Under the pieces are notes generated by a model. The model made no database searches. It had not been told where the DNA came from and saw only the letters and a program-made list of their open reading frames with translations. From a virus (taxonomy: Duplodnaviria; Heunggongvirae; Uroviricota; Caudoviricetes), in IMG/VR virus record IMGVR_UViG_2698536372_000004: DNA of 17,131 nt, one strand, 5' to 3'. How positions within the stretch are numbered: the first letter of the stretch is position 1; every line of letters starts with the position of its first letter. Below are positions 8,456 to 10,981 of the stretch, piece by piece. A program made the position numbers and the translations under genes.

Positions 8456-9157
8456 TTATTCTGATTCTCGCTCAAAAAACGAGCTAATAAGGGGAAGCCA
8501 ATCCTCTGACACTTCGCGAGGTCGCGGTTTGCCGTGGAAAAAGATTATTCGGCAGTCCTTTGGTAATGCCCCATTCCCCCTGGAGTAACGCGCGCTCGCA
8601 TATTTTGAACCAGGTTCCACAACATCGGCCTTGTAACTTACAAACCATCCTGGATACAGATCCTGAAATGCTGGTGTATCATCGCCCATAACCTTCCGTA
8701 AGAACCCCTGATCACCCCAGCACTCAGTAGTGACACAACGAGAAATCCAACCTTCCGGATCTTGCCAGAATGAACTCCAGATATGCGCTTTTACACTATT
8801 TGGTATCCACAGGGCACCGCTACCACGATATTGTGGATGGTAAAAATCCCTAAGCATGGTGAAGCTGGTTGGTGGATTCTCAAGGATTGGGCGTATATCA
8901 CCGGCAATAACTGTGTCCAAATCCAGATAGAACAGATCATCTGTTATATCCGGTCGGAACAACTCGATTTTCGCCCACCAGCCACGGCACTTTTGCCACT
9001 GGTTGATCAATGGGACAACTTTGACGCCAGGTACATGTAAACGCTTCAGGTCTGTCAGGCAAATAATTTCATAGCCTTTTGGCAGTTGATTAACCAGCCA
9101 CTGCACATCGGAAGCGTTATAGTCACCACCAGAGCGAAAAACTAAAGCAATCTTCAT
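8456..9157 (-). CDS. Putative GT-A-fold glycosyltransferase-like protein with DXD motif
   Basis: [31 protein letters not shown] resembles the DXD region of sugar-nucleotide transferases (Och1/GT32-like pattern D-l-l-R...Y-L-D-x-D). ATGA overlap with the NinI-like gene. Confidence 0.4.
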
Positions 9158-9846
9158 GCTGCACCATCACCTTTCACTTTCATCAATGTCAGGTTTCCGC
9201 AAAATACGGCACCAGTGTCGATATACTGCTGATTCCAGAATGTCTTCGGGCTTTTCACCGGAGTGTGACCAAAGATAAAACGATCTGCGCCCGAAATTTC
9301 GCCACCAATATCATCCATCGAATCACTGATACGCTCGCGCGCCCAGACAACGTTGAAAAGCGGCACCTCCTTACCGAATTGGTATTCATTATCCGGATAG
9401 TCGGCATGGGCTATAACGATAGTTTCTTGCCCGGTGTTCAACTCAATGATATAGGGCAGACGCTTTACCAGCTCCACCAGCGCCCAGGCTAATATTTCCT
9501 GATCAGTGTCCAGCATGAAGAACCATTGTCCGCCATTCATTAGCCAGTTATTCACGTTGCCATCTGGACTTAACGCATCAATCATCAGCCGCTCATGGTT
9601 CCCCATCACTGCCCTGAACCAGGGCATCTGCAATAGTTCCAGACATTCGACATTTTCAGTACCGCGATCGATAAGGTCGCCGACCGATATCAGTAAATCC
9701 TGCGCCGGGTCAAAATCCACACGATGGAGTTCGGACATCAGTCTGGTGTAGCAACCATGCAGATCACCAACAACCCAGACATTCCTGTATTTGGTACCGT
9801 CGATACGGTGATAAATTGTTGGTGCCATCATGTATTCTTCAGCCAT
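9154..9846 (-). CDS. ninI: Ser/Thr protein phosphatase, lambda NinI (orf221)-like metallophosphatase
   Basis: The three metallophosphatase motifs are present: GDLHG, GDLIDRG and GNHE. Near-colinear with recalled lambda NinI (IDG(T/S)KYRN(V/I)[11 protein letters not shown]..., ISVGDL(I/V)DRG(T/A)[22 protein letters not shown]). True start may be one of the internal ATGs at 9831 or 9828; the latter overlaps the upstream stop. Confidence 0.85.
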
Positions 9847-10454
9847 TCTTTAAGAGTCATCTGCGGAATACCTCCCATTTTCCCGCATGAAACAACGTCA
9901 ATCTGTTCACGCGCAGACTGGAATAACAAAGGCAGGTGACTTAGATTTTTTGGCGTGCCGCCGGAATGAACGCGTGGTTCTTGCGTAGCATCAACGCCCA
10001 CCAGGGCTACATGTTTGAATCCGATATGGAAAGCCAGGTTCAGAGCACCATATGCACTATTGCCGCTGGCAATTTCATTCTCATCTTCGCAAAGTCCGAA
10101 ATGTGCGGACCAGCGCCACGCCCACCACTCGGGAGAATTCGTATTTTTTGGCTCCATGCCACGTTCAGCCACACGACGGAAGCACAGAACGCCGTCTCTG
10201 ACTTCACGTTCTTTAACATCGGGTAGTGCCATGCAATAACAAACACCACGGCGACGGCGGCCACGACCAACGCGCCGCATATTGTCTGGCGATGGATCAA
10301 GGGTGAAAAAATAAGAAGCGCGGTTAAGCCAGTCGATGGCCCCATTGACCGCTATAATCGGCACTCCGCGCGGCGCAACAAAGTTTGCGGCGCTTGGGCC
10401 ACTGCCGACGATAATAACGCGATCACTGCCTCTAAATTTATTCTTGGGAAACAT
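9828..10454 (-). CDS. Rossmann-like GxGPS protein, paralog 2 (sialyltransferase/MAF-DUF115-like nucleotide-sugar fold?)
   Basis: [13 protein letters not shown]...IIAVNGA...[26 protein letters not shown] parallels the Cst-II/GT42 and MptE/MAF-like arrangement (GNGPS, then a small-residue helix, then GxD). Clear paralog of 10352..10981. RBS AGGAGCAG before ATG 10454. Confidence 0.45.
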
Positions 10455-10981
10455 TGAATTGCACTGCTCCTACTTGCATTCAAAATATGTAAATCTGCGT
10501 GTTTTTTGCGGGTATCCAGGAACTGCTGTTGCCATTTTGAAATAGACACCTGCGTTGGATTCCGTAGGGCTTGAGGGTGTGCTCCATGCCAATGAAGGCC
10601 GTTTTGCAGAGAACAGTCATAGCCGACTAATACAACTACTTCAGCCCCTGATTCAGCCGCCAGACTGATAGCCTGCGCGCCGCTATTAACCCCTTCAGCC
10701 GGTCCACAATATCGCCTGTACTCCAACGAAAATGATTTCGCCGCCGCCAAGTTGGCTGTCACTTTGCGGAATCTCCCTCCCGGTATGGTGGATCCGTATT
10801 GCTTCCACCATGACAAATCACCGGCGTATAAGGCATAAATGTCATCGAACATCTGCCAGGAATTGTTAACCGCGATGATTGAACAGCCAGTTTTTTCTAT
10901 AGCAGCACAGTCCTCACGAGTGAGTGATGGACCGCTACCGACACAAAAAACAGTCCTAGTCGCCCTGGGTGGTATGTTCAT
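10352..10981 (-). CDS. Rossmann-like GxGPS protein, paralog 1
   Basis: VFCVGSGPSLTRED...IIAVNNS...GVNSGAQAISLAAESGAEVVVLVGYD has the same motif layout as paralog 2. Start chosen at the internal ATG 10981 so that N-terminal length matches the paralog; the track ORF extends to 11014. The 3' end overlaps the paralog 2 start by 103 nt in a different frame. Confidence 0.45.
   Translation of the reverse strand: MNIPPRATRTVFCVGSGPSLTREDCAAIEKTGCSIIAVNNSWQMFDDIYALYAGDLSWWKQYGSTIPGGRFRKVTANLAAAKSFSLEYRRYCGPAEGVNSGAQAISLAAESGAEVVVLVGYDCSLQNGLHWHGAHPQALRNPTQVSISKWQQQFLDTRKKHADLHILNASRSSAIQCFPRINLEAVIALLSSAVAQAPQTLLRRAECRL

Follow-up and report, generated by a model that had tools for sequence, protein, structure and literature searches.

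The pmgO, pmgP and pmgQ genes of P1-type phages encode a WaaZ/Maf-like pair and a GT8-like protein that travel together as a putative glycan module

The 17,131-nucleotide sequence IMGVR_UViG_2698536372_000004, from a virus of the Caudoviricetes and called the window below, contains four consecutive minus-strand open reading frames (ORFs) that a preliminary description, made from the sequence alone, had singled out as a cluster of two paralogous proteins, a phosphatase and a glycosyltransferase-like protein. The 3.8 kb around these genes share 98-99% identity with phages P1, P7, RCS47 and SJ46 and with ~800 P1-type plasmids, and the region can be identified as the pmgN-pmgO-pmgP-ppp-pmgQ operon, under C1 repression, of a P1-type phage-plasmid. 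The four ORFs are pmgO, pmgP, ppp and pmgQ, and the operon begins upstream of them, at pmgN. To convert positions in the P1 record AF234172 (locus L001) into window positions, a constant +4999 was applied, and all flanking genes bear this offset out. The features are, in the direction of transcription:

11175-11210, minus strand: sigma-70 promoter region PpmgN, within the 3' end of pmgM (P1 annotation, -35/-10 hexamers at L001 6185-6211)
11155-11171, plus strand: operator Oppp for the C1 repressor, earlier named Op83, controlling the operon (AF234172, L001 6156-6172; window letters TATGCACTAATTAATTT)
10956-11111, minus strand: pmgN, the small first gene of the operon (P1 annotation, 51 amino acids)
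10352-11014, minus strand: pmgO, putative glycosyltransferase paralog, WaaZ/Maf/Cst-like (MptE-like fold)
9828-10454, minus strand: pmgP, the second paralog, MptE-like fold
9154-9846, minus strand: ppp, Mn-dependent Ser/Thr protein phosphatase of the lambda-PP/NinI type (Pfam Metallophos, phrog_246)
8456-9157, minus strand: pmgQ, putative GT-A glycosyltransferase, GT8-like (glycogenin/Gat1/WaaJ-like), the last gene of the operon (phrog_1962, E 5e-128)
8389-8454, no strand assigned: C1 operators OpmgRa and OpmgRb with promoter PpmgR (P1 annotation, L001 3390-3455)

The predicted sigma-70 promoter of the operon is overlapped by Oppp; an independent consensus scan placed it at 11203-11175 on the minus strand (GCGACA-17-TAAAAT). 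The 3' boundary of the pmgN-pmgQ operon is set by OpmgRa, OpmgRb and PpmgR, since these mark the start of the next operon, pmgR-pmgS. In P7 the genes are named hdmA-D, for 'head morphogenesis', and in P1 they are labelled 'putative morphogenetic function'; as RefSeq and PHROGs already use the labels 'alpha-2,3-sialyltransferase' and 'glycosyltransferase' for genes of the operon, they are not unannotated. The pmgO, pmgP, ppp and pmgQ genes were all scored nonessential by CRISPR interference (CRISPRi) and by deletion (PMC10695390), and 24 of 29 P1 single-gene knockouts showed neither a plaquing defect nor a change in antirestriction (PMC9024508); the table in PMC10695390 refers to this knockout study for the nonessential status of the same four genes. 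The first gene of the operon behaves differently: pmgN was essential by CRISPRi knockdown, yet its deletion was viable (PMC10695390). This discrepancy is not due to a polar effect, because all the downstream genes of the operon are nonessential. The open frame of pmgN reaches a GTG at 11153, for a product of 65 amino acids, like P7 hdmA.

PmgO and PmgP are single-domain proteins of 208-220 amino acids. All motifs on which the preliminary description had relied are present in the translations, VFCVGSGPS, IIAVN, VNSG and GYD in PmgO, with GVD among those of PmgP. Conserved residues in PmgO are GSGPS 26-30, N50, D66, N110-S111-G112, G131-Y-D133, HWHG 141-144, N179 and R182, and in PmgP GSGPS 17-21, N37, D53, G131-N-S133, G153-V-D155 and H173; N37, D53 and G153 (PmgP numbering) are invariant across both families. 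Compared directly by BLASTP, the two proteins align over the N-terminal 36 residues only (E 0.003). Family profiles built from 32 and 33 homologs matched each other in hhalign with 98% probability (E 1.8e-13, 162 columns); the paralogy proposed earlier is therefore real, but distant.

AlphaFold models of the two paralogs (pLDDT, the predicted local distance difference test score, 85.9 and 94) have an alpha/beta fold that superposes on the central domain of Maf, on MptE and on Cst-I. When the PmgO and PmgP profiles were merged and searched against the PDB, the only matches above noise were Cst-II (E 0.0017-0.005), a lipooligosaccharide sialyltransferase (0.018), Maf (0.05) and Cst-I (0.053). 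The alignment to Cst-II places SGPS on GNGPS, AVN on RCN31, NSG on TSG132 and GxD (GyD) on GID154. The PmgP family profile alone had no match in the PDB, nor did the fusion protein P0092 (described below) alone, and the PmgO family profile alone gave marginal matches only. Profile search and structure prediction thus recovered an MptE-like fold and the GT42 and Maf families, and the earlier association with GT42 (Cst-II) and MAF/DUF115 proteins was upheld by the merged-profile match to Cst-II at E 0.0017. In conclusion, these comparisons show PmgO and PmgP to be distant paralogs that have the MptE-like fold common to Maf flagellin glycosyltransferases and GT42 sialyltransferases. In a fold search of a viral library, MptE-like domains were found to be common in uncultured phages.

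Scored with the merged profile, Escherichia coli WaaZ reached 31.3 bits, Cst-II 21.1 and Maf 16.3, which makes WaaZ, the transferase of the third residue of 3-deoxy-D-manno-octulosonate (Kdo), the closest apparent relative of PmgO and PmgP among characterised proteins. The hhalign match to WaaZ has an E value of 8.9e-5, with a probability of only 60%, and covers the C-terminal 85 columns; the homolog P0092 also has a faint precomputed match to the Pfam family WaaZ_KDO_III (PF27901). The waaZ gene of E. coli K-12 (L188 5346-6197) itself has a sub-threshold match to the MptE-like family PF01973 (29.6 bits, E 6.9e-7, residues 1-195), which would tie GT73-type Kdo transferases to the Maf/GT42 fold. 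We take the WaaZ family to be CAZy GT73. For GT73, listed as 'bacterial KDO transferases', a variant fold like that of GT42 has been predicted. WaaZ adds the third Kdo of the inner core of lipopolysaccharide (LPS), and its induction is accompanied by truncation of the outer core (PMC6358824).

Like PmgO and PmgP, WaaZ is a single domain, with the same order of motifs (SGPT, IIAVNG, LTD, a helix containing (H)T, SGLD, NPMP and N-L-S-D-D-T), and its donor, Kdo activated with cytidine monophosphate (CMP-Kdo), is available in every host of the phages considered here. WaaZ differs from the phage proteins in that identity is low and in that it is encoded on the chromosome, within the waa operon, and has lipid A-core as its acceptor, whereas PmgO and PmgP form a paralog pair with a GT8-like partner. 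Maf enzymes have also been found to transfer Kdo from CMP-Kdo in E. coli BL21, and their mutagenesis showed that an acid, a serine and a second acid are essential, namely E324 and D415 in Magnetospirillum magneticum Maf and D272, S334 and D357 in Clostridium botulinum Maf (bioRxiv 10.1101/2020.06.03.131540). Candidate counterparts of these residues, invariant or nearly so, are D66/S111/D133 in PmgO and D53/S133/D155 in PmgP; we infer the correspondence from motif position and not from a residue-level superposition. The spacing from the serine to the following aspartate is 22 in the phage proteins and 23 in C. botulinum Maf. Maf proteins (PF01973 central domain; PDB 5mu5) are otherwise much larger, ~630-666 amino acids, with additional N- and C-terminal substrate-binding domains, and are encoded in flagellar glycosylation islands, whereas PmgO and PmgP are bare catalytic domains of ~200 amino acids whose neighbours are phage structural, lysis or replication genes.

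With respect to the Campylobacter jejuni enzymes Cst-I and Cst-II (GT42), the position of Cst-II N51 is an aspartate in the phage proteins, as it is in Maf. The alignment ends before Cst-II His188, for which candidates exist downstream of GxD: the invariant H173 in PmgP, and in PmgO the invariant H141 and H143 and the nearly invariant H146. E. coli K-12 makes no CMP-sialic acid, so that the label 'alpha-2,3-sialyltransferase' probably names the wrong donor.

PmgQ (233 amino acids) contains YLDLD, with D79 and D81 invariant in 27 homologs, and a C-terminal FHGKPRP in which H208, G209, P211 and P213 are invariant in the same set. The PmgQ family profile matched Gat1 (6mw5) in the PDB at E 1.6e-6 over positions 56-204, the GT8 enzyme 5gvv at 0.004 and glycogenin at 0.014; its YlDLDTv aligned on YIDADAI, the GT8 DxD, and its HGkPrP on NPKPW, the C-terminal GT8 motif. 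E. coli WaaJ scored 19.3 bits with the same profile. On these profile comparisons PmgQ is shown to be a GT8-like, and hence putative, GT-A transferase, in agreement with the preliminary description, which had read the DLD as a GT-A DXD motif. PmgQ shares with GT8 enzymes (glycogenin, the Skp1 alpha-galactosyltransferase Gat1, LgtC and WaaJ/WaaO) the DxD, the C-terminal His-Gly-x-Pro and profile similarity; it differs from them in belonging to a compact family of 200-240 amino acids, so far seen only in phages and prophages.

Family hidden Markov models were used to scan loci carrying these genes, drawn from annotated phages, viral contigs and one-per-species genomes. A scan of viral contigs with the PmgP alignment gave only near-identical P1 copies and was repeated with a distant first sequence. 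PmgP-bearing loci formed 40 clusters at 90% identity, of which the 30 flanked on each side by at least 3 kb were used as lineages. PmgQ was nearby in all 30 lineages, and PmgO in 25, with one further lineage carrying it as a fusion. An exhaustive PmgP profile search recovered 243 clusters (50% identity) at E <= 1e-10, and every identified host of the module was Gram-negative.

Several proteins join the families in one chain. PmgO and PmgP are fused in P0092, one uninterrupted 376-codon ORF (L187 8001-9131) on a 62-kb phage contig, followed by PmgQ. The other fusions are PmgP-PmgQ (two cases), PmgQ-PmgP, PmgQ-PmgP-methyltransferase and methyltransferase-PmgP; fusion proteins were noted as P0092, P0220, P0288, P0303, P0272 and P0309, and also at L186 5157-6482. 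In the Xanthomonas jumbo phage Xoo-sp13, a TylF-type sugar O-methyltransferase is fused to PmgQ. A variant of the module, found in D3-like Pseudomonas phages and in a Klebsiella jumbo phage, consists of a PmgO-like gene, a gene for a protein of 275-296 amino acids and a methyltransferase gene; the middle protein is weakly GT9-like in one of three cases and has no Pfam match in the other two. These observations show that PmgO, PmgP and PmgQ travel together across many phage and prophage lineages with Gram-negative hosts, sometimes as fusions. The strongest evidence that the trio forms one glycan-building pathway is these fusions, together with the fact that the partners are all glycan-tailoring enzymes. 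A sugar-nucleotide-dependent modification module, proposed in the preliminary description for all four genes, is the best reading for PmgO, PmgP and PmgQ; it does not extend to the phosphatase, as follows.

Ppp is a clear ortholog of lambda protein phosphatase (NinI/ORF221). It matches Pfam Metallophos at 59.3 bits (cut-off 21.5) and phrog_246 at E 5e-113, its translation contains GDLHG, GDLIDRG and GNHE, and the P1 record notes 64% identity to lambda PP. It is found in only three of the 30 PmgP lineages, all P1-like. In the P1-like Cronobacter phage JK004 and in several P1-like contigs the order is pmgO-pmgP-pmgQ-pmgR-pmgS, with nothing between pmgP and pmgQ. Conversely, phage D6 carries ppp (90% DNA identity) among nin-like genes and lacks the trio, whereas in P1 the gene is wedged into a glycosyltransferase operon. 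In other lineages the pmgP-pmgQ slot holds class I, FkbM-type or TylF-type methyltransferases, GT-A (Nucleotid_trans-like), GT2-like or GT4-like proteins, or is empty. Ppp is thus a P1-lineage insertion in a variable slot, a passenger and not a core member of the module; the fusions, and the glycan-tailoring nature of the other partners, lead to the same conclusion. The tight embedding of the phosphatase, which had been considered remarkable, reflects this insertion.

The gene junctions were also re-examined. The four ORFs lie where they had been described, except that the upstream limit then given, 10981, is the internal Met12 of pmgO; Met12 is likely the true start. The genes had been described as joined throughout by overlapping stop and start codons. 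This is the case for ppp/pmgQ (ATGA, 9157-9154) and possible for pmgP/ppp, where an ATGA overlap is available at 9831-9828; in the P1 record ppp starts at 9846 instead, giving a 19-nucleotide overlap. It is not the case for pmgO/pmgP: the pmgP ATG (10454), with an AGGAG 10 nucleotides upstream, precedes the pmgO stop (10352-10354) by 103 nucleotides and is in the -1 frame. At least ~55 nucleotides of this dual coding are genuine, because the PmgO family is conserved up to CFPRxxLE, beyond the pmgP start. The same -1 relation of pmgP to pmgO holds in 17 of 19 related loci, where the two genes overlap by 4 to 115 nucleotides. A slippery heptamer of the Rous sarcoma virus type, A_AAT_TTA, occurs at 10439-10433 in the right frame for a shift from pmgO to pmgP. 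Programmed -1 frameshifting, with which the natural PmgO-PmgP fusion would also agree, was nevertheless rejected as unsupported: the heptamer is present in none of 18 related loci, nine of which have no slippery heptamer at all. The estimated chance occurrence of such a heptamer is ~13%, and since it is not conserved in relatives it is probably there by chance.

In several unrelated siphophage-like genomes the module lies within the head gene block. The order is terminase, portal, protease, major capsid protein, module and head-tail adaptor in two of them (L095 and L113); the upstream head genes of L108 are as in L095, and its contig ends within the module. In L110 the order is portal, protease, module and adaptor, and in L126 a head-closure protein directly precedes the module. 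The PmgO-like gene of phage D3 lies between capsid and connector genes. The module abuts the large terminase gene in L096, follows terminase and portal in L114, and lies between lysis genes and terS in phiNP; in Xoo-sp13 it is directly upstream of the gene for a 1439-amino-acid tail host-specificity protein. Other contexts are replication or nucleotide-metabolism genes (L130, L101). Head or packaging genes were found within five genes of the module in ~17 of ~27 non-P1 lineages, a raw count over lineages that share ancestry.

Small ORFs between the capsid gene and the PmgO-like gene (D3 orf6.5 and similar ones) were considered as candidate acceptors and dropped, since their sequence runs into what is probably the true 5' end of that PmgO-like gene. 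Two PmgO-like products, PAJU2 ORF010 (L104 4974-5543) and gene 00005 of Klebsiella phage Eowyn (L105 3998-4570), were labelled 'structural protein' by their depositors; if this label rests on virion proteomics, a PmgO-like enzyme may be packaged or particle-associated, but no data behind the label turned up in the literature searched. In genomes of Pseudescherichia and its relatives (L089-L093), the PmgP and PmgQ genes are convergent and the PmgO gene is ~4 kb away on the opposite strand. The surrounding ORFs, of ~1170, ~1000 and ~500 amino acids, form a different, possibly non-phage, context for the module.

The overall best explanation, to which we give slightly less than an even chance, is that PmgO, PmgP and PmgQ form a glycan module that uses CMP-Kdo and a hexose activated with uridine diphosphate (UDP) as donors and a virion protein as acceptor. 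During lytic growth, PmgO and PmgP would each transfer an ulosonic acid from a CMP-activated donor, most likely CMP-Kdo, as this is the only CMP-activated sugar made by all hosts of the module, which are all Gram-negative. PmgQ would add a hexose from a UDP-sugar, with retention, so that a single acceptor would receive a short glycan from the three enzymes together; in other phages the same glycan would also be O-methylated or extended. The acceptor would be a virion protein of the head or tail, and the module, nonessential in the laboratory, would decorate particles. For the acceptor taken separately, a virion protein is our tentative choice, held with a little less assurance. It is favoured because the module lies among particle-assembly genes, because it is off in the lysogen, and because the nearest solved relatives (Maf and glycogenin/Gat1) glycosylate proteins. 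According to the P1 annotation, it is the C1 operator that keeps the operon off in the lysogen; knockouts are viable.

Virus-encoded glycosylation of particles has precedents. Chlorovirus capsid glycan enzymes combine glycosyltransferase and sugar methyltransferase domains. In mycobacteriophages, glycosylation of capsid and tail was described by Freeman et al. (2023), as cited in PMC12582341. These systems resemble the P1 module in using virus glycosyltransferases, some with methyltransferases, that are dispensable and act on particles in the lytic cycle. They differ from it in their enzyme families and in their hosts, Actinobacteria or algae, and virion glycosylation in P1 is deduced from gene position only.

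Several observations weigh against a virion-glycosylating module. The PF01973 scores of PmgO (23.4 bits) and PmgP (20.9 bits) are below the 34.6-bit gathering threshold, which is passed by their homologs P0092 (44.6 bits) and P0258 (44.1 bits), and the fold is also used by pyrophosphokinases (MptE and thiamine pyrophosphokinase). A Pfam scan of all 27 PmgQ family members matched no family, GT8 included. The substrate of WaaZ, and of the GT8 enzymes encoded in the waa locus, is LPS core and not protein. In P1 itself the promoter of the operon is an early-type, C1-controlled sigma-70 promoter, with no annotated late promoter, and the operon adjoins tail and baseplate genes, not the capsid gene. 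The proximity of the module to head genes is suggestive, the correlation being across lineages that are not fully independent. Glycosylation is nowhere mentioned in the P1 virion proteome paper, and no functional study of pmgO, pmgP or pmgQ, or of phage DUF115/MptE or WaaZ proteins, was found in the literature searched.

The strongest alternative, which we regard as unlikely although it deserves serious consideration, is remodelling of the LPS core. The WaaZ-like PmgO and PmgP and the WaaJ/WaaO-like GT8 protein PmgQ would act on nascent lipid A-core in the infected cell, adding Kdo and hexose, and the outer core would be truncated or masked. P1 adsorbs to outer-core glucose. Because the outer core is the P1 receptor, such remodelling would reduce superinfection and the loss of progeny on debris. 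The standing of WaaZ as the best-scoring characterised relative argues for this alternative, as do the GT8, GT4-like and weakly GT9-like partners of the module, which mirror the families of the waa locus, the Gram-negative nature of all identified hosts and the early-type, C1-controlled promoter in P1. However, in many phages the module is part of late head operons, a poor timing for remodelling since the surface is by then already rich in old LPS, and the O-methyltransferases that frequently accompany it are atypical for core remodelling. Moreover, in contrast to known seroconverting modules, it is repressed in the P1 lysogen. Lysogenic-conversion modules of the Gtr type are expressed from the prophage, include a flippase and a membrane transferase, and lie beside the integration/immunity region; the P1 operon is unlike them in being controlled by a C1 operator, and many phages have the module within late or structural blocks. 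No match to flippase or membrane-transferase families was seen adjacent to the module, and this too argues against the LPS reading.

A glycan module with another acceptor appears rather improbable. In this case the glycan would be built on a host protein (flagellin, pilin or a defence protein), on a lipid carrier, or on a secreted or capsular polymer. Maf and glycogenin/Gat1, the nearest relatives with a solved structure, are indeed protein glycosyltransferases, and PmgO-like genes occur in the flagellotropic phiCbK-like Caulobacter phages. PmgO and PmgP, however, have none of the flagellin-binding domains of Maf, as their size already indicates, no host-interaction gene is consistently linked to the module, and its genome position points to particle assembly.

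We consider it quite improbable that PmgO and PmgP work like MptE or thiamine pyrophosphokinase, diphosphorylating a small molecule or a sugar that PmgQ would then use. The shared fold allows for such an activity, but the sequence searches recovered only sialyltransferases, Maf and WaaZ and no kinases, candidate counterparts of the residues required for Maf activity are conserved, and the constant partners are glycosyltransferases and sugar-type O-methyltransferases, fusions included. The sequence evidence thus favours a transferase over a pyrophosphokinase.

Restriction enzymes routinely cut P1 DNA, in which methylation is the only known modification. That all four genes, Ppp included, form one unit for sugar hypermodification of phage DNA against restriction, a target raised in the preliminary description, is hardly credible: the tight packing with ATGA overlaps speaks for a unit, and a slot that holds module-related enzymes in other phages leaves room for a co-opted role of Ppp, but Ppp is an ordinary lambda-PP homolog that, as JK004 and D6 show, is separable from the trio, ordinary small temperate phages carry the module, antirestriction is unchanged in those P1 knockouts that plaque normally (PMC9024508), and neither the window nor any examined module locus contains a hydroxymethylase or other base-activating gene of the kind that is linked to the transferases in T-even-type DNA glycosylation.

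Other genes of the window call for some comments. Upstream of the operon, pmgM and pmgL (11178-12004, minus strand) are also labelled 'putative morphogenetic' in P1. PmgM resembles a nuclease of the VRR-NUC/Holliday-junction-resolvase type (phrog_5702, E 5e-27) and PmgL a DksA-like zinc-finger protein (phrog_54, E 2e-13), so that their predicted roles are related to DNA or transcription rather than structural. The pap gene (6313-6819, minus strand) is an 'acid phosphatase' in P1; it matches the phage polynucleotide kinase/3'-phosphatase family (phrog_415, E 7e-53), and the old name may mislead. Positions 1-6118 depart from the canonical P1 arrangement (pmgT-pmgU-pmgV), the closest P1-like records covering 67% of them, and encode several ead/Ea22-like proteins (phrog_368, 250, 60 and 614). 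Positions 1-8000, used as a query, matched ~600 phage records, including many from Stx-converting and other lambdoid phages. This part of the window looks like a mosaic accessory region.

The genes of the operon have long been known and already bear homology-based labels; they are not new sequence. In the literature searched, we found no earlier report of the fusion-linked trio, the exclusion of Ppp, the connection to WaaZ and Kdo or the placement among head genes. Two database habits are corrected: the sialyltransferase label is probably wrong on the donor sugar, and the module should not be taken to include the phosphatase. After 70 years as a workhorse, P1 still has 'putative morphogenetic' genes without a known role; a conserved, fusion-linked trio, with 243 clusters matching its PmgP profile, turns four anonymous P1 genes into a testable pathway. 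If LPS is remodelled, the module would represent a new lytic-phase strategy of receptor masking. If particles are glycosylated, this would bear on phage immunogenicity and stability and on the engineering of P1-based delivery vectors. It is conceivable, although we would not call it likely, that many phages of Gram-negative bacteria, P1 included, decorate their particles with a short Kdo-containing, often O-methylated glycan by means of a WaaZ/Maf-like pair and a GT8-like enzyme. If true, this decoration of virions with Kdo would extend virion glycosylation beyond the actinobacteriophages for the first time and put the LPS precursor CMP-Kdo to a new use.

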